DNA from: a virus
Length of the DNA stretch: 64,000 bases
Virus record (IMG/VR): IMGVR_UViG_3300021378_000004
Direction: 5' to 3' (one strand)
Shown here: positions 1 through 55,338 of the stretch, one piece after another
Numbering within the stretch: position 1 is the first letter of the stretch
Layout of the letters: each line of letters begins with the position of its first letter
The notes under the pieces: model-generated
What the model was told of the DNA's origin: nothing
What the model saw: the letters and a program-made list of their open reading frames with translations, nothing else
The model's database searches: none
Made by a program: the position numbers and the translations under genes

Positions 1-173
1 TTGACGACGAAGAAACTTTTGCACAAAAGGTATCTCAGTTAAAAGAATCATATTTTGCTAAGACAACTAAAACCCAAGATGAGATTGTTGAAGATGATGA
101 TGCTCCACTAGTGGAATCAACAGGTTCAATGGATCAATATCTTAAAGCAATAAAGAAAACTGCAACAAAATAA
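1..173 (+). CDS. gp22: Prohead core scaffold protein gp22, C-terminal part (truncated by window edge)
   Basis: Frame from nt 3 reads DDEETFAQKVSQLKESYF...SMDQYLKAIKK, stop at 171-173; directly upstream of gp23 as in T4-like phages. Confidence 0.8.
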   Translation, partial: DDEETFAQKVSQLKESYFAKTTKTQDEIVEDDDAPLVESTGSMDQYLKAIKKTATK

Positions 174-187
174 ATAGGGAGTCTTAA

Positions 188-1507
188 ATGACACAATCAT
201 ACGATAGATTGATCGAAAAATGGGCACCAGTGCTGAACGAAGAGTCAGCTGGTACTATTGCGGATCATCATAAAAAAGCTGTAACAGCTGCAGTACTTGA
301 GAATCAGGAAATCGCACTTAGAGAAGAAGGAATGATTACAGAAGCAGCTCCAGGAAATGCTACAGGTTCAGTAGCAAATTGGAATCCAGTATTAATTGCA
401 CTAGTAAGACGTGCTATGCCTAACTTAATGGCATATGACATCTGTGGTGTACAACCAATGTCTGGCCCAACTGGTCTTATCTTCGCAATGAAGTCAAGAT
501 ACGGTGGTGGTTCAACATCAAATAGAGAAGCATTATTCAACGAAGCTGAGACTCAGTTTTCTGGTGACAGTGGTGGCACTCACGATTCTGATAACGTATC
601 AGGTTTAAGAGACTCACAAGGTGGCGGAACTGTTGGAACAGTCGATGACGACAGACTTACAGCTCTTGCTGCAGGTGGTATGACAACCAATGAAGCTGAG
701 AAATTAGGTTCAACTGGAGAATCATCATTCAGAGAGATGGGATTCACTATTGAGAAAGCAACTGTGACTGCTAAGTCAAGAGCATTAAAAGCTGAATACA
801 GCTTAGAATTAGCTCAAGACCTTAAAGCTATTCATGGTCTAGACGCTGAGACAGAATTGGCAAACATCTTGTCAACAGAAATCTTAGCTGAAATCAATAG
901 AGAAGTTATTAGAACTATTAACTCTCAAGCTAAAACTGGTGCTTTACAATCTAACACAGCTATTAACGGTATCTTTAATATTCAAACAGATGCTGATGGT
1001 AGATGGTCAGTTGAAAAGTTTAAAGGACTTGTATTACAAATCGAAAGAGAATGTAATAGAATTGCAATCGAGACACGTAGAGGTAAAGGAAACTTTATCA
1101 TATGTTCATCTGATGTAGCATCTGCACTTTCTGCAGCTGGTATGTTAGACTACACACCTGCAATGTCAACAAACTTAAATGTTGATGACACAGGTAACAC
1201 TTTTGCTGGTGTCTTAAACGGTAGAACAAGAGTTTACATCGATCCGTATGCTGCACAAAACTATGTGACAGTTGGATATAAGGGAACTAACCCATACGAT
1301 GCTGGTCTATTCTATTGCCCATACGTTCCATTAACAATGGTACGTGCAGTTGGTGAAGATACATTCCAACCAAAAATTGGTTTTAAAACCAGATATGGAA
1401 TGGCATCTAACCCATACGTAGGTGCAACACCTGCTGATGGTCTAGCCGCAGTTAAGACTAACCAATACTACAGAATATTCAGAGTTGACAATATTCTAGG
1501 TGCTTAG
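188..1507 (+). CDS. gp23: Major capsid protein
   Basis: KWAPVL, GVQPMSGPTGLIFAM, AKSRALKAEYSLELAQDLKAIHGLDAE and FQPKIGFKTRYG are T4 gp23 signatures. Confidence 0.99.
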   Translation: MTQSYDRLIEKWAPVLNEESAGTIADHHKKAVTAAVLENQEIALREEGMITEAAPGNATGSVANWNPVLIALVRRAMPNLMAYDICGVQPMSGPTGLIFAMKSRYGGGSTSNREALFNEAETQFSGDSGGTHDSDNVSGLRDSQGGGTVGTVDDDRLTALAAGGMTTNEAEKLGSTGESSFREMGFTIEKATVTAKSRALKAEYSLELAQDLKAIHGLDAETELANILSTEILAEINREVIRTINSQAKTGALQSNTAINGIFNIQTDADGRWSVEKFKGLVLQIERECNRIAIETRRGKGNFIICSSDVASALSAAGMLDYTPAMSTNLNVDDTGNTFAGVLNGRTRVYIDPYAAQNYVTVGYKGTNPYDAGLFYCPYVPLTMVRAVGEDTFQPKIGFKTRYGMASNPYVGATPADGLAAVKTNQYYRIFRVDNILGA

Positions 1508-1532
1508 TCTTAGTACTTTAAATTAATATTAG

Positions 1533-1559
1533 AAGAGGGACGAAAGTCCCTCTTTTTTT
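1533..1559 (+). terminator. Rho-independent terminator after gp23
   Basis: AGAGGGAC-GAAA-GTCCCTCT hairpin followed by a T run. Confidence 0.9.
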
Positions 1560-1561
1560 CG

Positions 1562-1569
1562 TATAAATA
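1562..1569 (+). promoter_or_regulatory. T4-type late (gp55) promoter
   Basis: TATAAATA immediately upstream of the gp3-like ATG. Confidence 0.8.
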
Positions 1570-1574
1570 CAATT

Positions 1575-2141
1575 ATGGCATTAACTACAAACTTTAACTA
1601 TCTACAACCAACTGGATTTAAGTTAGTAATAGATAGAAAAAATTATCCGAACTTAGAGTTCTTCTGTCAAGATTTCACCCACGCTGGTGTAATTATGAAT
1701 ACAGCAGATCTTGGCTATAAGAAAATAGCAGCAATTCCATTTATAGGTGACAAACTTACTTATAATGAAATGCTAGCAAATATAATCATTGATGAAGATA
1801 TGAAGACTTATACAGAGATGCACAACTGGATGAGAAGAAATCTTGATCAAGATAACGTAACAGCACTTGATAGATTTAATAACGCAAATGCAATACCTGC
1901 AATGTCTGATATAACGTTATCAATACTTAATAGTTCAAATAACACTATAGCACAAATTATCTATAGAGATAGTATACCAACAGCATTAACTGATATTCAG
2001 TTTCAAGCTACAACTGGTGCTGAATCTTTTCTAACATTTGGTGCTTCATTTAGATTTACTTATTTTGATATTAAGACAATTAATCCAACAACTGGTGCAA
2101 TAACAGATTCATTTGATGTAACTGGTTCTGTAACTGGTTAA
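1575..2141 (+). CDS. gp3: Tail tube terminator / tail completion protein (gp3-like)
   Basis: NYLQPTGFKLVI...PNLEFFCQ, tail-tube fold pattern; synteny between gp23 and uvsY. Confidence 0.75.
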   Translation: MALTTNFNYLQPTGFKLVIDRKNYPNLEFFCQDFTHAGVIMNTADLGYKKIAAIPFIGDKLTYNEMLANIIIDEDMKTYTEMHNWMRRNLDQDNVTALDRFNNANAIPAMSDITLSILNSSNNTIAQIIYRDSIPTALTDIQFQATTGAESFLTFGASFRFTYFDIKTINPTTGAITDSFDVTGSVTG

Positions 2142-2165
2142 TATATATTATTAATTGGAGAGATT

Positions 2166-2612
2166 ATGATAGACTTGAAAAAAGTCCACGATATGTGGCA
2201 AAACGATAGCATTATTAACAATGCAAAATTAGACGAAACTTCAAAAAACACACCGCAGTTACATTCAAAATATTTACAAATATGGTCAACCGCAAAGTTA
2301 GAACTAAAACGCTGTGAGTTTGAACAAAAGAAATTACTTAAAGACAAATGGTTATATTATAATGGTAAGATGGATCATGAAACAATAAAAGAAAAAGGTT
2401 GGGTGCCAGATCCATTTGATGGTTTAAAAGTACTCAAAGGCGAAATGGATTATTACTATGATAGTGATCCGGAAATTCAAAAGTCAGAAGAAAGAATACA
2501 ATATTGGAAAACTGTAGTTGAAACTTTATCTGAAATTATTGATAATTTAAAGTGGAGACACCAGACAATAGGTAATATTATTAAATGGAAACAATTCGAA
2601 TCAGGAAATTAA
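2166..2612 (+). CDS. uvsY: Recombination mediator UvsY
   Basis: TPQLHSKYL, KWLYYNGK, C-terminal RHQTIGNIIKWKQFESG; adjacent to uvsW. Confidence 0.9.
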   Translation: MIDLKKVHDMWQNDSIINNAKLDETSKNTPQLHSKYLQIWSTAKLELKRCEFEQKKLLKDKWLYYNGKMDHETIKEKGWVPDPFDGLKVLKGEMDYYYDSDPEIQKSEERIQYWKTVVETLSEIIDNLKWRHQTIGNIIKWKQFESGN

Positions 2613-4057
2613 ATCATTCTATAATACATGTAGAATGCGAAAGAGGCGTAGGTGCAGAACTACGAGAGTTTTTTTCATTCTATGTTCCTGGTTATAAATT
2701 TATGCCAGCATTTCGTAATCGATTGTGGGATGGAAAAATAAGATTATTTAATCAAATTAATGGACAAATATCTGCAGGACTATTTCCTCAAATAGTAACG
2801 TTTGCAGAAAAACGTGAATATGAAATTGAAATACTAGAATCAGATTATGGTAATCCTAATGAAGGAAATAAAATAAATCCCGAATTTATGATGAAGTTTG
2901 TAGATGCTTTAAAGTTACCATTTAAAATAAGAGATTATCAGTTTGATGCAGTATGCACTGGAATACAAAGAAAAAATGCTATATTGCTATCACCAACTGG
3001 TTCTGGTAAATCACTTATAATATATGTTCTAATGCGTTATCTTATATCGTCATTCGAACAAGACGTTCTTGTGATAGTGCCGACTACATCATTAGTTGAG
3101 CAAATGTATAATGATTTTAAAACTTATGGTTATGACGTTGAAAAATATTGTCATAGAATATATTCAGGTAAAGATAAAAATACAACTAAGAGAATCATAA
3201 TAAGCACATGGCAATCAATATATAGATTTCAACCAGATTGGTTTAGTAGATTTGGAACAGTATTTGGAGATGAGTGTCATGGATTTAAATCTAAATCGCT
3301 TACTACTATAATGAATAAATGCGTAGAAGCTGAATATAGATTTGGAACAACCGGTACCTTAGACGGAGCGCTAACGCATGAATTAGTATTGCAAGGATTA
3401 TTTGGTAAAGTATATAGAGTTACTAGTACACGCGAATTACAAGATAATGACACACTTGCAAAGCTTTCTATAAGAAGAATAGTATTAGATCATAGTGAAG
3501 AAATTAAAAAGAATTTTGGCAAAAAAACATATCAAGAAGAAATTGAATTTATAGTTACTAATATTAAACGAAATACTTTTATAAAAAACTTAACTTTAGA
3601 TTTAAAAGGCAATACATTAGTTTTATATAACTATGTAGAAAAACATGGGAAGCCTCTTTACAATATGATTAAAGATGAAGCCGCAGAAAATCGCAAGATT
3701 TTTTTTGTATCCGGAGAAACTGCAGCTACAGATCGAGAAGCTATAAGAGGAATAGTAGAAAAACAAAAAAATTCTATTACAGTTGCATCACTTGGTACAT
3801 TTAGTACGGGTATAAATATTAGGAACCTACATAATATCGTCTTTGCATCTCCATCTAAATCACAAATAAGAGTTTTACAAAGTATAGGAAGAGGTTTAAG
3901 AAAAACAGATGATGGAAGAAGTACCACACTTTACGACATCATTGATGACATAGTTTGGAAGTCTCGAAAAAACTTTGGCATATTACATGCTGACGAAAGA
4001 CTTAGAATTTACGGAAGAGAAAAATTTAACCACAAGACTTATAGAGTGAATTTATGA
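2585..4057 (+). CDS. uvsW: SF2 DNA/RNA-DNA helicase UvsW
   Basis: WDGKIRLF, SPTGSGKS (Walker A), DECH, QSIGRGLR. Confidence 0.97.
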   Translation: METIRIRKLNHSIIHVECERGVGAELREFFSFYVPGYKFMPAFRNRLWDGKIRLFNQINGQISAGLFPQIVTFAEKREYEIEILESDYGNPNEGNKINPEFMMKFVDALKLPFKIRDYQFDAVCTGIQRKNAILLSPTGSGKSLIIYVLMRYLISSFEQDVLVIVPTTSLVEQMYNDFKTYGYDVEKYCHRIYSGKDKNTTKRIIISTWQSIYRFQPDWFSRFGTVFGDECHGFKSKSLTTIMNKCVEAEYRFGTTGTLDGALTHELVLQGLFGKVYRVTSTRELQDNDTLAKLSIRRIVLDHSEEIKKNFGKKTYQEEIEFIVTNIKRNTFIKNLTLDLKGNTLVLYNYVEKHGKPLYNMIKDEAAENRKIFFVSGETAATDREAIRGIVEKQKNSITVASLGTFSTGINIRNLHNIVFASPSKSQIRVLQSIGRGLRKTDDGRSTTLYDIIDDIVWKSRKNFGILHADERLRIYGREKFNHKTYRVNL

Positions 4058-4545
4058 ATATAAAACAATTTAAGTTAACAAATAATGAAGAGATAATATG
4101 TGAAGTTGTGGAATGGAATACTGGCGATGACACTGGTGATGTTCTAGTAAAAAAAGCTTTTAGAGTTATAACTGTTGAAGATTACCAAAGAGGTTGGAGG
4201 TTCTTTGCTTTTAGACCTTGGATGTCTTTTCAAGATGATCCATCTTCAATGCAAACAATTAATTCATCACATATAATAGTTACTACCAATCCATCAAAAA
4301 ATATATTAAAACATTATAAAACATGTTTAACTAGTGTAGCTAAAGATTTAAAATCAAATAAATCAAGTGGAAAGAAAATATACGCTAACTTTGATGAAAT
4401 ACAAAATGAAATAAGAGATTTAACTGATGAAGAGATGGATGACTTTTTAGAAAATAAGTACGGTGCGGCTGAAGAAGATAGCCAAGTTCCAGATTCAAGT
4501 GATGGCAAGATTATTAAATTCAAACCCCGTGATACTTTTCATTAA
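4054..4545 (+). CDS. Conserved T4-like hypothetical protein (Sm-like N-terminus)
   Basis: IKQFKLTNNEEIICEV...FRPWM pattern; usual position between uvsW and gp55. Confidence 0.6.
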   Translation: MNIKQFKLTNNEEIICEVVEWNTGDDTGDVLVKKAFRVITVEDYQRGWRFFAFRPWMSFQDDPSSMQTINSSHIIVTTNPSKNILKHYKTCLTSVAKDLKSNKSSGKKIYANFDEIQNEIRDLTDEEMDDFLENKYGAAEEDSQVPDSSDGKIIKFKPRDTFH

Positions 4546-4546
4546 A

Positions 4547-4587
4547 GTATATCCCCTTCTCCCCGTATACTCTTTTATTATACCATA
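4547..4587 (-). repeat. 41-bp element (extended -10 plus G-tract), inverted copy of 53857-53897
   Basis: Reverse complement TATGGTATAATAAAAGAGTATACGGGGAGAAGGGGATATAC is identical to 53857-53897. Confidence 0.95.
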
Positions 4588-4605
4588 CTTTTTAACAAAT
4601 GTACA
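4577..4605 (-). promoter_or_regulatory. Reverse-strand sigma70-type early promoter
   Basis: TGTACA-N17-TATAAT with TG extension on the minus strand. Confidence 0.75.
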
Positions 4606-4640
4606 CCATTATATTTTCAGCTAAGAGAGAAATTTAACAG

Positions 4641-4669
4641 TGTACTTTTAATAAAAACTGGTGTATAAT
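4641..4669 (+). promoter_or_regulatory. Sigma70-type early promoter of gp55
   Basis: TGTACT-N17-TATAAT. Confidence 0.75.
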
Positions 4670-4695
4670 AATACTATAAAATAAAGGTTTAAACA

Positions 4696-5280
4696 ATGGC
4701 ACGTAAAAAAAGTATACATTATGTCAACAACTCTGATTTTAGTACAGCTGTAGTTGAATATGTTAAAACAGTAGATCATGCTAGAAAAACAGATATCAAC
4801 ATTCCAACAGTACCAGATTATGTAGCTCAATGCTTTCTTAAAATAGCAGAAGGACTGTCTCATAAAGGAAACTTTATAAGGTATACATACAGAGAAGAAA
4901 TGGTAATGGACGCAGTTGAAAATTGTTTAAAGGCAATAAGTAATTACAATTTAGAAGCAGCTACTAGAACTGGTAAACCAAATGCATTTGCATATTTTAC
5001 ACAGATAACATGGTATGCTTTTTTAAGAAGAATAGCAAAAGAAAAAAAACAACAAGAAATTAAAATGAAATATTTAACTAAATCTGGTTTAGATAGTTTT
5101 GTTGATGTTGGTACCGAAGAAGTAGCAGCTTCGACTGCATTACATTTTGTAGATACATTAAAAGATAGAATTGCAAGAGTACGTAATACAGACAGCGAAG
5201 TAAAAGAAATAGTTAAAAAAGAAAAAAAGAAACGTAAATCAAAATTAGCAGATTCTGATTTAAGTGAATTTATGCAATGA
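4696..5280 (+). CDS. gp55: Late transcription sigma factor gp55
   Basis: HYVNN, IAEGLSHKGNF, YREEMVMDAVENCL, NAFAYFTQI, AFLRRIAKEKKQ. Confidence 0.97.
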   Translation: MARKKSIHYVNNSDFSTAVVEYVKTVDHARKTDINIPTVPDYVAQCFLKIAEGLSHKGNFIRYTYREEMVMDAVENCLKAISNYNLEAATRTGKPNAFAYFTQITWYAFLRRIAKEKKQQEIKMKYLTKSGLDSFVDVGTEEVAASTALHFVDTLKDRIARVRNTDSEVKEIVKKEKKKRKSKLADSDLSEFMQ

Positions 5281-30190: not shown

Positions 30191-30328
30191 ATGGGTAATA
30201 AGTATACACAAGATATGACTGGAACTGGTGATCACATTGAAATGGATGACGAAAAAGAACCGGAAAGATATTATGATTGGATGCTTTGGAAATTAAAGCA
30301 AGAAGAAAATAAAGGTGATAGTAGTTAA
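30191..30328 (+). CDS. Small hypothetical protein (45 aa, not in ORF track)
   Basis: AAGGA SD; MGNKYTQDMTGTGDHIEMDDEKEPERYYDWMLWKLK... Confidence 0.5.
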   Translation: MGNKYTQDMTGTGDHIEMDDEKEPERYYDWMLWKLKQEENKGDSS

Positions 30329-46418: not shown

Positions 46419-46607
46419 GTGCGAACTAAGCAAATCAACAGGCCAGATAGTGGTGCACTAGCTCTTTTTGCGTGTCTTCGCTATGAGGAAGCAACATTAA
46501 AAAATGTTACAGACTTTGAAGAACGGTGGGACATAACAGATGCAGAACGTCAAATTATTCTTAAATGGATAACAAAGCGTATGGAAGATATAAAAAGCAA
46601 GTTATAA
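46419..46607 (+). CDS. Hypothetical protein
   Basis: GAGGAG SD, GTG start. Confidence 0.55.
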   Translation: MRTKQINRPDSGALALFACLRYEEATLKNVTDFEERWDITDAERQIILKWITKRMEDIKSKL

Positions 46608-46610
46608 ATA
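46603..46610 (+). promoter_or_regulatory. Late promoter of tmRNA
   Basis: TATAAATA just upstream of the tmRNA acceptor piece. Confidence 0.7.
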
Positions 46611-46615
46611 CTACA

Positions 46616-46952
46616 TAACGATGAAACAAAGCGAAAGGTTTGCTGGACTCGGGGGCGGTACCCGACAGCTCCACCAAAATAAGTCTTATGGATGATGTAC
46701 TACTTTGGGAATATAGAAAGACATTAGTTAAGTGGATATGCATAAATAATTATTCACCACGACACGCAAGACTTATCTTGATGGGGCTGAAATAGGATCG
46801 ACAGGTACGTAATAGCGATGTGGAGTTATCCGGATGTAAGCTCGGTTAATGCGAACAAAACGACAAATGCAAACGATAATTTTGCACCTCAAGAGTTAGC
46901 TCAAGCAGCTTAATTCTTATGAGCCCGGAGGAGCTTGGAAACAGAATCCTCC
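46616..46952 (+). ncRNA. ssrA: Permuted two-piece tmRNA (alphaproteobacterial type), tag ANDNFAPQELAQAA
   Basis: The 3' tRNA-like half GGACTCGGGGGCGGTACCCGACAGCTCCACCA (ends 46676) precedes the 5' half GGGGCTGAAATAGGATCGAC (46783); tag frame 46869-46913; ends approximate. Confidence 0.93.
46688..46795 (+). CDS. 35-aa ORF in the tmRNA intervening segment
   Basis: MDDVLLWEYRKTLVKWICINNYSPRHARLILMGLK; no clear SD. Confidence 0.3.
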   Translation: MDDVLLWEYRKTLVKWICINNYSPRHARLILMGLK

Positions 46953-46954
46953 AC

Positions 46955-47200
46955 AGATTTCCTGAGGTGAGTACGTGTTGCAACACTACTTATAAAAAAA
47001 CCGGGATTCACGTGTGCACTTTACGAGGTGCGGCGACGTAGGTGGGCTACCAAGACGGATAAGGTAGACTCGATATAAGAACGTAAAATTACCTACACGG
47101 CGGGGCGGGCTGGACGCACGAGGGAACTAAAATAGTCCTGCTAAAAAAAGTGTGATGACTTAATACATCCGCGTGGAGGAATTGTTACCTCCACACCTTT
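46955..47200 (+). ncRNA. Unclassified GC-rich structured RNA candidate
   Basis: Non-coding, GC-rich for this genome, several hairpins and a long-range GTAGGT/ACCTAC pairing. Confidence 0.5.
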
Positions 47201-50000: not shown

Positions 50001-50470
50001 TGGAAAGCAAATATTTAACACATCTTAATATTAAATATAATAAAAAAATGTTACGTGATGAATTGTTAACATTAAATTATACACAATATTTTACATCTTT
50101 AAACATCAAAGATAGATGGCTACGCTCAACTATAAATGACACTAGTTTATTTCCTAATATTAAAAAACTTCATAATTTATTTCCGGAAAGCGGCGTTGTT
50201 GCATATAAACTTCAATCTAATTCATATGTGCATATGCACACTGATCCATTAACATCATGCGCTGTCAATATTATATTATCTGATAACAACGGCCCCGTCG
50301 TATTTGAAGATTATGGCAAAATTAATTATGAATGTGCTTTATTTAATTGTAGTCTTAAACACGCAGTTCCTGCTTTTGACAATGAAAGACTATTATTAAA
50401 ATACTATTGGCAAAAAAAATCTTATGAAAAAATTAAACTACTATTAGCAGATTTTATAAAACACCACTAA
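50000..50470 (+). CDS. Small Fe/2OG oxygenase-like protein, paralog 2
   Basis: HTD...AVNIIL...YECALFN..KHAV...RLLLK. Confidence 0.6.
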   Translation: MESKYLTHLNIKYNKKMLRDELLTLNYTQYFTSLNIKDRWLRSTINDTSLFPNIKKLHNLFPESGVVAYKLQSNSYVHMHTDPLTSCAVNIILSDNNGPVVFEDYGKINYECALFNCSLKHAVPAFDNERLLLKYYWQKKSYEKIKLLLADFIKHH

Positions 50471-50912
50471 TTTTGTTAAGTGCTTCGTTATAAGTCATAT
50501 CAAATATCGATAACTTAAATAGTACACGGTCTTCTGTAATTGCAGATACTTTATGTTCTTCTTGCACGTTAATTAATGCGCATTCATATGAATAAGATTT
50601 TGATCTAAATTCAATAGGATCTTTTATATCACTTAGCACAAAGTTAATACAGCACTGAGTGCCACGATCTTTATGAAATGGCAGAGTGAAACCTTTCTCT
50701 TGTATATAATATCTCGGACTTACTTCACACTGTAATAGTTTTTTAAAATCAGATGTAATACTTTTACTATAGCAACCTATTGTTTTACTAATACTCCATT
50801 CTGGTATGTCTTTTTTTGTTAAGGGATCATTAAAAGATACGTAACCGTCTGCATATAACGCTTCATCTCGTAATTTTTTTTTACGAAATTTATAATTTAA
50901 TTCTGATAACAT
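50454..50912 (-). CDS. Small Fe/2OG oxygenase-like protein, paralog 3
   Basis: HKD...CINFVL...YECALINV..EHKV...RVLFK. Confidence 0.6.
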   Translation of the reverse strand: MLSELNYKFRKKKLRDEALYADGYVSFNDPLTKKDIPEWSISKTIGCYSKSITSDFKKLLQCEVSPRYYIQEKGFTLPFHKDRGTQCCINFVLSDIKDPIEFRSKSYSYECALINVQEEHKVSAITEDRVLFKLSIFDMTYNEALNKISGVL

Positions 50913-51554
50913 TTATATAACTTCCTTTACAAATTTTATTAATAACCCCATTTTAATACTAAAACCATTATTTGTATTTTCTGAATTGTGTAATTGACAT
51001 GAGTCAAAAACAAAAACACTTTTAGGATCCCATGTGTATTCATTTTCAATTTCTAAATCTTTTATATTAATGTGTGCACCTTTTGCACCTTTTGTACCAG
51101 ACACACTCCATGTCGGATATCTATTCTTATAAAACGTAATCTTACCACCATCACCATCTGACCACAATGGTATTAATATATTTCTCCACGGAACGCATTT
51201 TCCATAATTATTTTTTTTTGATTTGTGATATGAATCAGTGTGATATCCGTATTCAACTGCAGTAATAAAAAAATTACCACCATATTGTATTTTTGGATTA
51301 GGTAAAACATTGTTAATTCTATCTTTGTATCGAGAAATAATATCTTTATAGTCGTTGTTAATAAATATTGTTTTATTCCATACGTTAGTTCTGGCTTCTC
51401 CATTTCGAAAAGCGTACTTCCAAATATAATCTATGTCACCATCATTAAAGAAATTTTTATATTGTACTGAAGATTCGTATTGCGATTTAATAGCATCGCG
51501 TGCAAAATGCGTGTCAAGATCCATGATTATATTATCTTTCATACAATAATCCAA
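50913..51554 (-). CDS. Fe/2OG oxygenase-like protein
   Basis: YHTD, ILIPL, VFVFDSCQLHNS, K. Confidence 0.65.
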   Translation of the reverse strand: MDYCMKDNIIMDLDTHFARDAIKSQYESSVQYKNFFNDGDIDYIWKYAFRNGEARTNVWNKTIFINNDYKDIISRYKDRINNVLPNPKIQYGGNFFITAVEYGYHTDSYHKSKKNNYGKCVPWRNILIPLWSDGDGGKITFYKNRYPTWSVSGTKGAKGAHINIKDLEIENEYTWDPKSVFVFDSCQLHNSENTNNGFSIKMGLLIKFVKEVI

Positions 51555-52014
51555 ATCGATTCAATCGATCGACAACCTCGTCCCATTTATGTCTTAAACA
51601 AAACTTTAGTATTAACCTGTGATTTGTATCTGGTTCAACGCCGTGTAACTTTCCTCCTACATCAATTAACGCACATTCGTATGGATATGGTTTATTCTCA
51701 ATATGTATTATTGGTGTTGTGTCTAACAGATTAATATTAATTGACACCATATTATCTTCATCTCGATGATGTCCGAGTTTTGTGTTAGGAAATTGATACG
51801 AGAATCGAGGAAAGTTATTCATACCATGTATATTTAAATCACGTTCTACAGGCTCAATTAAAGGTTTAAGGTCATGCCCATCAGGTATCATTAACTGATA
51901 CCAAAACAATTCCTGTCGATTCGGCACAGACCAATGCCACTGGCCTCGTTGTATATTATCATAAAAGATTTTTTTATATCGATTCTTATCGATTTCATAG
52001 TCACAATGTATCAT
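51532..52014 (-). CDS. Small Fe/2OG oxygenase-like protein, paralog 4
   Basis: HRD...SININL...YECALIDV..LHGV...RLILK. Confidence 0.6.
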   Translation of the reverse strand: MIHCDYEIDKNRYKKIFYDNIQRGQWHWSVPNRQELFWYQLMIPDGHDLKPLIEPVERDLNIHGMNNFPRFSYQFPNTKLGHHRDEDNMVSININLLDTTPIIHIENKPYPYECALIDVGGKLHGVEPDTNHRLILKFCLRHKWDEVVDRLNRFGLLYER

Positions 52015-52667
52015 GTCATTTTAATAAAACTATCTTTTGATGGTTTAAATTTTCTATTCCATGTAGTCTTAATACGCGAATCAACATTCATATGATCCCA
52101 TCCTATATGAATTCCATCTCTATTATATACTTCAGCTTTCATTATATTTGATTTTGCTGCAGGTACTCCATAACCTATTCCTATTGATATCACTGCCTCT
52201 GCATCTTTATTATAACCAAGTTTCTCTGCTGTTTTTTTTCTGGACATGCAACCACAAAATCCAGTATTTAATCCACGCTCTTCTGCTGCTAACATCGCGA
52301 CTGTTGAACTTGATACACAATCATTAATAATATCATTTTTTTGGTATTTATTTTTAAATTCTGCAACCCATGTCATAACAATTGGTGCCAACACTTGTCC
52401 ATTAAATCTATTAAGTAAAGGATCTCTACTGAGAGGTCGTATATCTTTGTGTCCTTCTACACATACACTGTCTTCCCAATACATCCATTCTTTAATTTCA
52501 TTTGCTTTTTTACTATCATTTAAAACATGTATAGTGTAATTATACTTATTCTGTTTAGAAGGGCATTCGTACAAACAATCAAGTATGTAACGAATTTTTT
52601 CTGGTTCGACTTTTGTTTCTAACCACCACTTAGATGTAAATCTCTTTGTTAATATATCTTTTAACAC
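52011..52667 (-). CDS. Nitroreductase-family protein
   Basis: KRFTSKWW, CPSKQN, AMLAAEERGLNTGFCG, IGIGY. Confidence 0.8.
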   Translation of the reverse strand: MLKDILTKRFTSKWWLETKVEPEKIRYILDCLYECPSKQNKYNYTIHVLNDSKKANEIKEWMYWEDSVCVEGHKDIRPLSRDPLLNRFNGQVLAPIVMTWVAEFKNKYQKNDIINDCVSSSTVAMLAAEERGLNTGFCGCMSRKKTAEKLGYNKDAEAVISIGIGYGVPAAKSNIMKAEVYNRDGIHIGWDHMNVDSRIKTTWNRKFKPSKDSFIKMT

Positions 52668-52684
52668 TGTGTAAATCTCTCATT

Positions 52685-52867
52685 TTACATATTCTCACTT
52701 CGTCTCCAACGACAATACGCGTTAAATAAATTCATATTGAACCACATTAACATTCCTGCGAGTATCGGACTCATTAACATCATCTTATAACATATGAATA
52801 ACATACACGAAGTCACACCAACCATCATATGGTCTCTTGTCTCTAACGTTCTACTCACTGAAATCAT
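52685..52867 (-). CDS. Small membrane protein
   Basis: Hydrophobic; part of a chain of tiny minus-strand ORFs. Confidence 0.45.
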   Translation of the reverse strand: MISVSRTLETRDHMMVGVTSCMLFICYKMMLMSPILAGMLMWFNMNLFNAYCRWRRSENM

Positions 52868-53203
52868 CCTTTATTTTACGTTCCATTATATTATGTTCCT
52901 CCGGATTGTTTCTTCTCCACTCTCTGTCCTTATACCAATCGTACATAAACATATACAATCCTACACATAACGCACTTATTACTCCATACATTAATATTTC
53001 AATCATTTCTTCACACTCTCTTCATACTTCTTTTGGTCTGAATCACTCCAAACTCTCGTCCAACCCGTATTCTTCCATACTTTCAATCCCGAACCATTGT
53101 ATTCCCACGGTCGATTATCAGGATCTAACTCAATTATTTTCATATTTGCAATATCATCCATAAACATATTCCTATCATTATAACATATAATCCTATATAA
53201 ACC

Positions 53204-53392
53204 TTAAACATTCTTCCAATATTCCATTCTGTCATTCCAACACGTACGATTCGTATCATGTTCTATCAATTTCTCTATATAATGGTCATGTTCTACACTA
53301 TATAACTCTCGTTCAGTCTCACCAAACGCTCTCCTATAGACAGTCTTACCCTTATCCGGACTCTCATATATGTATTTCTTATACTTTTCCAT
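53204..53392 (-). CDS. Hypothetical protein
   Basis: YIYESPDKGKTVYRR motif. Confidence 0.6.
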   Translation of the reverse strand: MEKYKKYIYESPDKGKTVYRRAFGETERELYSVEHDHYIEKLIEHDTNRTCWNDRMEYWKNV

Positions 53393-53815
53393 TCATTATC
53401 CTATATAACTTAATCCTTAATTCTTTAATCTTTTCCTTATGTATACGTATAATATCAACAATAGGTTTCTCTTTAATAACCTTATTCTTTAATAAACTAT
53501 AATCAAACTTCTTATTCATCGATTTCTCGTTAGTATTATTGCCATTAGTATACTATAATATAATCTCATTAATAATTCGTATGGAAGGGAGTCATCGTAT
53601 CGTAATAATCTATATAAAAGACTATGTGATATCATATAGTAATGTACCGTAACGAATGACTCATAATACTATATATACGTCCTGCAATGTGTACAATCTG
53701 CACAAACTGTATGTGATTCAGAGAAACTAAGGTATCTCCATGAACGAACGGATACCTTAGTGACCACGGCAGAGCGCCGATTTTTCTCTCATACCACAGA
53801 AAAAGTGCACGGTGG

Positions 53816-53867
53816 TTAACATGTTATGTTCTTTTTCCTTTACATTTACGCGAATCTATGGTATAAT
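53816..53867 (+). promoter_or_regulatory. AACATGTT palindrome plus early promoter
   Basis: TTAACATGTTA at 53816; TTTACA-N17-TATAAT 53839-53867. Confidence 0.75.
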
Positions 53868-53897
53868 AAAAGAGTATACGGGGAGAAGGGGATATAC
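53857..53897 (+). repeat. 41-bp element, inverted copy of 4547-4587
   Basis: TATGGTATAATAAAAGAGTATACGGGGAGAAGGGGATATAC. Confidence 0.95.
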
Positions 53898-53945
53898 ACT
53901 CTGTGACTAATCATTAAATTAATTGCATTTAATTGAAAATAACTG

Positions 53946-53974
53946 TGTACATTCCCTTAAAACTATGGTATAAT
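53946..53974 (+). promoter_or_regulatory. Early promoter
   Basis: TGTACA-N17-TATAAT. Confidence 0.75.
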
Positions 53975-54007
53975 ATAATATATTAAAATAAAGAAAGAGG
54001 AATTAAT

Positions 54008-54217
54008 ATGTCAAAATACTTTACAGTTCTAACCGCCACTGACACTTCACTAGACGGTAAGTCTTATTACTCAGGTCAGGATAAGTCCGAGGACAAATCG
54101 ATTGATATCGCCATACAGAACTATACTATAGGGAAAATGAATACCGACGACCAGGTATTCGCTATTCGCACCTATGATGATATCGGTTCTGTGTCTCTTA
54201 AATCAATACGCCAATAG
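54008..54217 (+). CDS. Hypothetical early protein
   Basis: GAGG SD after the promoter. Confidence 0.55.
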   Translation: MSKYFTVLTATDTSLDGKSYYSGQDKSEDKSIDIAIQNYTIGKMNTDDQVFAIRTYDDIGSVSLKSIRQ

Positions 54218-55154: not shown

Positions 55155-55250
55155 CTAGGCCGCGTGTTTGCGATAGTTCAGTATCTTATGAACTTGAGCA
55201 CGTCTTCGCGCCTGTACAAACTTCATCCATTGGTATGGTCTGTAAGTCAT
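55155..55250 (-). CDS. 31-aa basic peptide downstream of the glutamine riboswitch (not in ORF track)
   Basis: SD GGGAGG; MTYRPYQWMKFVQARRRAQVHKILNYRKHAA. Confidence 0.65.
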   Translation of the reverse strand: MTYRPYQWMKFVQARRRAQVHKILNYRKHAA

Positions 55251-55277
55251 GTGTCACCCTCCCTGTAGTATGGTTAG

Positions 55278-55327
55278 GTGCGTTCCTTCAGCGATCGCCT
55301 ACTTCCGCCCGTATCGGGTGAACGTAA
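55278..55327 (-). promoter_or_regulatory. Glutamine riboswitch (glnA RNA motif)
   Basis: Minus strand CGTTC-A-CCCG-ATA-CGGG-CGGAAGTA-GGCGATCGCT-GAA-GGAACG: P1, P2, and E-loop P3 architecture. Confidence 0.8.
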
Positions 55328-55330
55328 TAC

Positions 55331-55338
55331 TATTTATA
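55331..55338 (-). promoter_or_regulatory. Late promoter driving the riboswitch transcript
   Basis: TATAAATA on the minus strand, 6 nt upstream of P1. Confidence 0.75.

Follow-up and report, generated by a model that had tools for sequence, protein, structure and literature searches.

Why should a phage genome hold two exact copies of a predicted strong promoter that face in opposite directions 49 kb apart, one of them with no gene to transcribe? The two copies were noticed in a stretch of 64,000 nucleotides (IMG/VR record IMGVR_UViG_3300021378_000004; hereafter the window), which is part of the genome of an uncultured marine T4-like myophage. Judged by the major capsid protein, its closest cultured relatives are Phage C48C1 (67 %), the Melnitz phages and Pelagibacter phage HTVC008M. 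The genes identified in the window include gp23 (188-1507), uvsY (2166-2612, + strand), uvsW (2585-4057, + strand), ORF163 (163 aa; 4054-4545, + strand; a weak DUF6561 / phrog_527 match) and the late sigma factor gene gp55 (4696-5280), in addition to those for the tail tube protein, gp47/gp46 and gp45. A phage-borne permuted tmRNA of the alphaproteobacterial type (46562-47004, + strand; 124.9 bits; tag peptide ANDNFAPQELAQAA) was also found, and its type hints at an alphaproteobacterial host.

Few viruses in the sea are as abundant as the marine T4-like phages. To our knowledge, it is largely unknown where their replication starts and how they time early and late functions without MotA/AsiA, and we know of no MotA-type middle promoters in Kyanoviridae-like phages. 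A gene-less strong promoter at one junction in cyanophages, pelagiphages and the present clade would be a clonable and mutable handle on both questions. No published description of the element was found in the literature that was searched.

Two copies of a promoter and its leader

The segment 4547-4587 (- strand) matches 53857-53897 (+ strand) at 41 of 41 positions, as claimed in a preliminary description of the sequence. At 88 % identity the arms of the repeat reach 57 nt (4547-4603 and 53841-53897) and take in the -35 element. Each copy runs in the order TG-extended -10, AAAAGA and the 24-mer GTATACGGGGAGAAGGGGATATAC, whose start at about +1 is predicted by the usual rule of 7 nt after the -10. 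When up to three mismatches were allowed, the 24-mer occurred exactly twice in the window and not at all in 100 shuffles. Both copies scored as strong predicted promoters of the sigma70 type with a TG-extended -10, in agreement with the earlier reading of a promoter plus G-tract, and their -35 halves do differ as had been said (TGTACA in copy A, TTTACA in copy B). The purine/G-rich box in the leader is rare; two of the 26 strong promoters in the window carry one, and five such tracts exist on both strands together.

Copy A lies beside gp55. Its promoter (4571-4605, - strand; 10/12 match, TG present) consists of the -35 at 4605-4600, the extended -10 TATGGTATAAT at 4587-4577 (TATAAT, 4582-4577) and the discriminator AAAAGA at 4576-4571, and the leader that follows (4547-4570, - strand) is the predicted +1 to +24 of an antisense transcript. 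As the preliminary description had it, this copy fires antisense toward uvsW/uvsY; it points leftward into the + strand uvsY-uvsW-ORF163 unit. A single nucleotide lies between the end of the leader and the ORF163 stop codon, and the predicted transcript would overlap the 3' end of ORF163 and run convergently into the unit. The early promoter of gp55 (4640-4678, + strand; families D2 and D4) is divergent from copy A and stands back to back with it. There is no gene downstream of copy A and no conserved antisense ORF. No terminator-like site was observed on either strand in 3900-4800 and none is predicted within 650 nt; therefore, no defined small RNA can be named.

In the region nearby, uvsY and uvsW are without a promoter of their own, no early one having been found for them anywhere in 1-4545. 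The gp23 terminator is a palindromic hairpin (GAGGGAC GAAA GTCCCTC) with a T run, and a late-type TATAAATA (1562-1569) is placed directly after this terminator, before the tail tube gene; terminator and motif together occupy 1531-1570.

Copy B has its promoter at 53839-53873 (+ strand), with the -35 at 53839-53844, the extended -10 at 53857-53867 (hexamer, 53862-53867) and AAAAGA at 53868-53873, followed by the identical 24-nt leader at 53874-53897 (+ strand). The gap that holds it (53520-54007, 488 nt) is the longest in the window without an ORF, as had been correctly noted. The statement that neither copy leads into a gene applies to copy A only, since a 69-aa ORF (54008-54217, + strand; no family match) is the first gene after copy B, 111 nt away. 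Between the two is a stretch of 79 % AT (53898-53997, + strand), whose least stable 50-bp segment belongs to the top 0.4 % of the window and which includes a second promoter with hexamers in 53946-53974. The scan predicted no + strand terminator around copy B.

What the two copies share runs only from the extended -10 to +24. Upstream of its -35, copy B has the palindrome TTAACATGTTA (53816-53826) and then CCTTTACA, and this upstream half belongs to promoter family D6, which is also represented at 30321 and 15145. Because of this family membership, the leader of copy B must be regarded as grafted onto a different promoter, most simply by recombination within the common -10. On the left side of the gap, a divergent promoter-like site (53668-53695, - strand) serves the leftward gene block 50454-53519. 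The approximately 140 nt between the two divergent promoters (53700-53838) are conserved in two related contigs (L004 and L013). In this segment, which gave no Rfam match, the palindrome is joined by a long hairpin (CTAAGGTATC...GATACCTTAG) and by a short stem with a T run after it.

Conservation of the element and further copies

Searching with the exact 24-mer retrieved 18 IMG/VR and 18 metagenome contigs (partly overlapping sets), representing four site-A and six site-B lineages. In these contigs the flanks are 69-90 % identical at site A and cannot be aligned downstream at site B, and the 41-mer is unchanged. Retrieval with the exact 24-mer accounts in part for its identity across lineages, an artefact from which the preceding 17 bases are free. 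Inversion isomers of the 49-kb segment were also looked for, and no chimeric A/B junction was present among the 36 contig matches; thus, there is no sign that the segment inverts.

When loci were retrieved independently of the box by anchoring on gp55 (80 loci, 64-99 % identity), the same junction had an antisense promoter in about 70 of the 80, with a purine/G-rich box and then (R)TATAC(C) after it. The sequence of the box varies by lineage. Its geometry is fixed, (R)TATAC standing about 31 nt past the -10 and starting 29-35 nt past it in 57 of 64 unique variants. At least one GGG is found in 55 of these variants and a Shine-Dalgarno (SD) core in 50, and the purine-rich strand is in every case the RNA-like one. 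Among cyanophage-type contigs, 79 of 80 have an antisense TTGACA-17-TAnAAT promoter at the junction. Of the named phages, C48C1 carries the full element, HTVC008M the promoter with only a weak G box, and the cyanophages S-8S55 and P-TIM68 the promoter followed by short G tracts.

Since copy A is found at the same junction across gp55-anchored relatives and cyanophages, it is an ancient element of conserved position. On these comparative grounds, the repeat is a real and functional control element, because most relatives have also retained the backward promoter of copy A, the ancestral one of the two. The preliminary description had named absence from related phages as an observation that would speak against it; this test does not refute the proposal, since the same position carries the element in a wide range of relatives. 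Its view that the transcript start is the conserved part is upheld as well. Selection acts on the first 24-30 nt of the predicted transcript from a very strong early promoter.

Copy B has a different distribution. A search anchored on the upstream sequence specific to site B gave three contigs only, all three with the leader intact, and copy B is by this measure confined to a narrow clade. In the six site-B lineages the relatives align to the end of the leader and then drop to about 51-56 % identity. The sequence itself, the quality of the promoters, the positional conservation of copy A, the absence of a gene after it and the graft at copy B all come directly from the analysis.

Second copies were also observed elsewhere. 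A 98-kb contig of a different lineage (G003) has site A and a second promoter 28 kb away with a similar leader, the two leaders sharing the lineage-specific TAATCCGGA. As in the window, the two copies in G003 point away from each other, and the second one is 45 nt before the SD of a 46-aa ORF. Its neighbourhood has no protein homology to site B of the window, and hence second copies arose more than once. In another relative (G002; contigs L102/L142), a weaker second orphan antisense promoter is located at G002:C1:61257-61295 (+ strand). It reads TTTACA-17-TATAAT and then TAGGAGGGAGCCAGTATACC, has no + strand ORF after it, and lies inside a - strand gene cluster including an aminotransferase-like gene. 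A second pattern match in G001 was rejected as a further copy, being an ordinary gene start. In the clade of the L020 type no second copy was detected, all 33 of the 33 matches being site A in short contigs.

What the leader may do

Several simple identities of the leader were tried and rejected. It is not a known RNA family, as no relevant Rfam match was obtained for the whole window at the gathering threshold or for both sites at E≤5. It is not a gene start or mini-ORF either: the ATG/GTG after the box is the reverse of the conserved C-terminal His-stop of ORF163, neither copy B nor the lineages with another upstream gene have such start codons, and the mini-ORFs after the box (1-17 codons) are not conserved. 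An ordinary SD site was also dismissed, since real gene starts score lower and have an ATG 5-9 nt downstream; among the 26 promoters, the top box score is reached at the two sites only. The duplex of the box with the anti-SD is calculated at -8.4 kcal/mol in the window (mean, -9.1), a value for which the control is weak because shuffling also breaks up purine clustering. The boxes of several relatives are G/U-rich and make poor SD mimics.

A hairpin GUAUA...UAUAC presenting the box is likewise not claimed; it is weak here, at -1.8 kcal/mol, and possible in sister clades, at -6 to -9. It has no covariation support (90 % of cells paired vs 89 % in shuffles; three compensatory cells), and RNAalifold predicts nothing. 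As to a small-RNA seed with a target in trans, the best duplex other than with itself was with the gp23 terminator (1531-1580; -23.6 kcal/mol) and was unconvincing.

A second structural feature is found in relatives. In the cyanophage-type set (L170-L249), an inverted repeat occupies the 15 nt immediately past the -10, and changes in one arm go with changes in the other (among the pairs are AACTC/GGGTT, AACCT/AGGTT and AACAG/CTGTT). Counted with G.T pairs and stems of at least 6, it is present in 53 of 74 unique sequences on the RNA-like strand vs 5 of 74 on the other strand, and in 15 % of shuffles. The corresponding counts are 20/56 in the family of the window, whose own two copies are without it, and 6/113 at other strong promoters. 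Complementarity confined to one strand speaks for a single-stranded nucleic acid and not for a duplex site. Since the repeat spans the predicted start (-6 to +9), one half would be expected to stay outside the transcript. The pattern resembles folding of single-stranded DNA, unless the start site is an unusual one; it does not fit a simple RNA model, and it does not prove an R-loop.

The reading that we prefer, tentatively and with somewhat less than even confidence, is an early antisense RNA, non-coding and with a specialised 5' leader, at the late/early boundary beside gp55, of which site B is a grafted copy heading an early operon. The preliminary description had offered a duplicated small RNA as its alternative, and this is closer to what the comparative data favour. 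Speaking for the reading are the family-wide conservation at one junction in one orientation and with fixed geometry, the purines always on the RNA-like strand, the lack of a gene start, the rarity of the box and its good pairing with the anti-SD, the leader kept at copy B and in the second copy of G003, and the lack of an early promoter for uvsY/uvsW. The repeat would be a strong early promoter of the host sigma70 type fused to a purine/G-rich transcript start of 24-30 nt. From copy A, gene-less and just past the ORF163 stop, it would make the antisense RNA early in infection. The selected part would be the 5' leader, with an SD-like G box closed by GUAUA/UAUAC, and most likely it would work in the RNA, where it would protect the 5' end or serve for recognition. 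The antisense transcript might hold the late-type uvsW unit down early, through convergent transcription and pairing, and might insulate gp55. At copy B the leader would have recombined, within the shared -10, onto another early promoter and would head the 5' UTR of the early operon. We infer here transcription itself, the action at the RNA level and the target.

Parallels to such an RNA exist. Lambda OOP is a 77-nt antisense RNA with its own terminator and was once proposed as a replication primer because of its position. As at copy A, its promoter faces a gene from a position immediately past the 3' end of that gene, and the non-coding transcript overlaps this end; it differs in having a defined terminator, where none is predicted here, and in having neither a G-rich 5' box nor a second copy. 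The cryIIIA STAB-SD and the polypurine stabiliser of phage SP82 are SD-like stabilisers at the 5' end of mRNAs, known from Gram-positive bacteria with 5' exonuclease decay. One of them belongs to a phage early RNA. They share with the present leader a polypurine SD-like tract close to the start of the transcript that has no start codon spaced for use. In contrast to these Gram-positive elements, the boxes of several relatives here pair poorly with the anti-SD. Counting against the antisense RNA are the lack of a terminator, of covariation and of a convincing target in trans, together with the poor SD mimics in several relatives, the partly artefactual identity of the 24-mer and the inverted repeat that spans the start in relatives. 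If the reading is true, non-coding control of the uvsW/gp55 boundary would be a family-wide feature.

A replication origin, the main proposal of the preliminary description, is in our judgement a less probable explanation. The antisense promoter beside gp55 would then be the T4-type RNA-primed origin of cyanophages, pelagiphages and this clade. The purine/G-rich RNA would stay on the C-rich template behind RNA polymerase, the 3' end of the RNA in this R-loop would prime leading-strand synthesis, and the two copies would fire outward from the early region; as parts of the same proposal, the inverted repeat would fold on the displaced strand, and extra copies such as site B would add origins. 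An orphan, very strong early promoter that is conserved family-wide speaks for this proposal, and the strand-specific inverted repeat at the start in relatives would lie on the strand displaced by an R-loop. Among hybrids, those of purine-rich RNA with pyrimidine-rich DNA are the most stable class. The purine-rich RNA-like strand would favour such a hybrid, and it is equally what an SD-like tract looks like. In mitochondrial CSBII and ColE1 RNA II, G clusters on the non-template strand shortly after the promoter favour a persistent RNA-DNA hybrid. Clusters in the same place are found here, but there are only two G4 runs, and the next 100 nt have a purine fraction of 0.43-0.54 and no G-rich extension.

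The location of the copies also resembles T4, where active origins are near transcriptional divergence in late-transcribed DNA and oriE depends on an early promoter (PMC3016281). Copy A has a predicted pre-late promoter firing into late-transcribed DNA beside uvsY/uvsW, both copies are at points of transcriptional divergence, and the outward orientation of two copies is common to the window and G003. UvsW, which is made late and unwinds T4 R-loops (PMC3016281), is encoded next door to copy A. However, a defining part of T4 oriF (uvsY) and oriG (34) is an AT-rich downstream unwinding element, and T4 R-loops form independently of any specific sequence (PMC3016281). At copy A every base of the conserved leader (about 50 % G+C) is kept, and no AT-rich unwinding element follows, +25 to +124 having 64 % AT vs a window mean of 67 % and a least stable 50-bp window at the 51st percentile. 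The unstable AT-rich stretch after copy B does fit an unwinding element, and it is also an ordinary promoter-bearing intergenic region. GC skew shows no change at copy A, a measure that is uninformative in T4-like phages, and only one copy is seen in most lineages. If true, this would be the first origin defined for marine T4-like phages. The cultured carriers (C48C1, HTVC008M and many cyanophages) make both the origin and the antisense RNA directly testable.

Three further explanations have lower probabilities still. It is rather unlikely that the repeat is only a promoter, copy B being a by-product of promoter-mediated recombination and the 41-nt identity a recent gene conversion. The model for this is the PeSL, a terminator stem-loop with an early promoter that is repeated in the variable regions of T4-type phages (PMC2839356, PMC4122927). 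Many near-identical early promoters do exist in the window, the shared segment starts exactly at the extended -10, and conversion-like boundaries are seen before TATGG (aaag vs aatc, each at both sites and differing by lineage). In addition, copy B is a repeated early promoter at a break of homology with stem-loops upstream, and the sequence beyond it is unrelated between relatives, as at PeSL exchange points (PMC2839356, PMC4122927). Here, however, the conserved part is downstream of the -10, and copy A occupies a junction in the conserved core instead of a hyperplastic region. Hairpins and a short stem with a T run precede copy B, where no terminator was called, and no upstream stem-loop of the PeSL type was found at copy A. 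Recombination would also leave unexplained the 24 transcribed bases kept in six B and four A lineages with diverging flanks, the family-wide box at site A, and the leader retained at three of three upstream-anchored B sites.

More doubtful is a leader acting in cis, either by modifying RNA polymerase or as the binding site of a phage protein, as in nut/put-like antitermination. Two identical copies placed directly after diverging early promoters, a sequence that is lineage-specific yet similar within a genome (the clade of the window and G003) and a possible hairpin with a purine-rich loop are what such a leader might show. Neither boxA/boxB nor the two-stem put architecture is recognisable, though, Rfam gave no match at E≤5, the hairpin is unsupported, and in most relatives only the gene-less copy is present, where read-through would have no obvious use. 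We give the smallest chance to a double-stranded DNA operator at about +1 to +25, through which a phage or host regulator would block the promoter. An inverted repeat made of the half-sites GTATA-N14-TATAC, together with palindromes over the start site in many relatives, is what an operator might show. However, the purine/pyrimidine asymmetry of the strands is conserved while the sequence is not, and a duplex operator would not require purines always on the RNA-like strand.

A riboswitch-like block near copy B

Rightward of copy B, a short antisense block (55155-55338, - strand) is flanked by + strand genes. It consists, in order, of a late-type TATAAATA (55338-55331), a glutamine riboswitch (55326-55277; 55.4 bits vs a gathering score of 35), GGGAGGG and a 31-aa basic ORF (55250-55155) that begins MTYRPYQWMKFVQARRRAQ. 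The block could be a riboswitch-controlled small peptide, perhaps resembling the glutamine synthetase inactivating factors of cyanobacteria.
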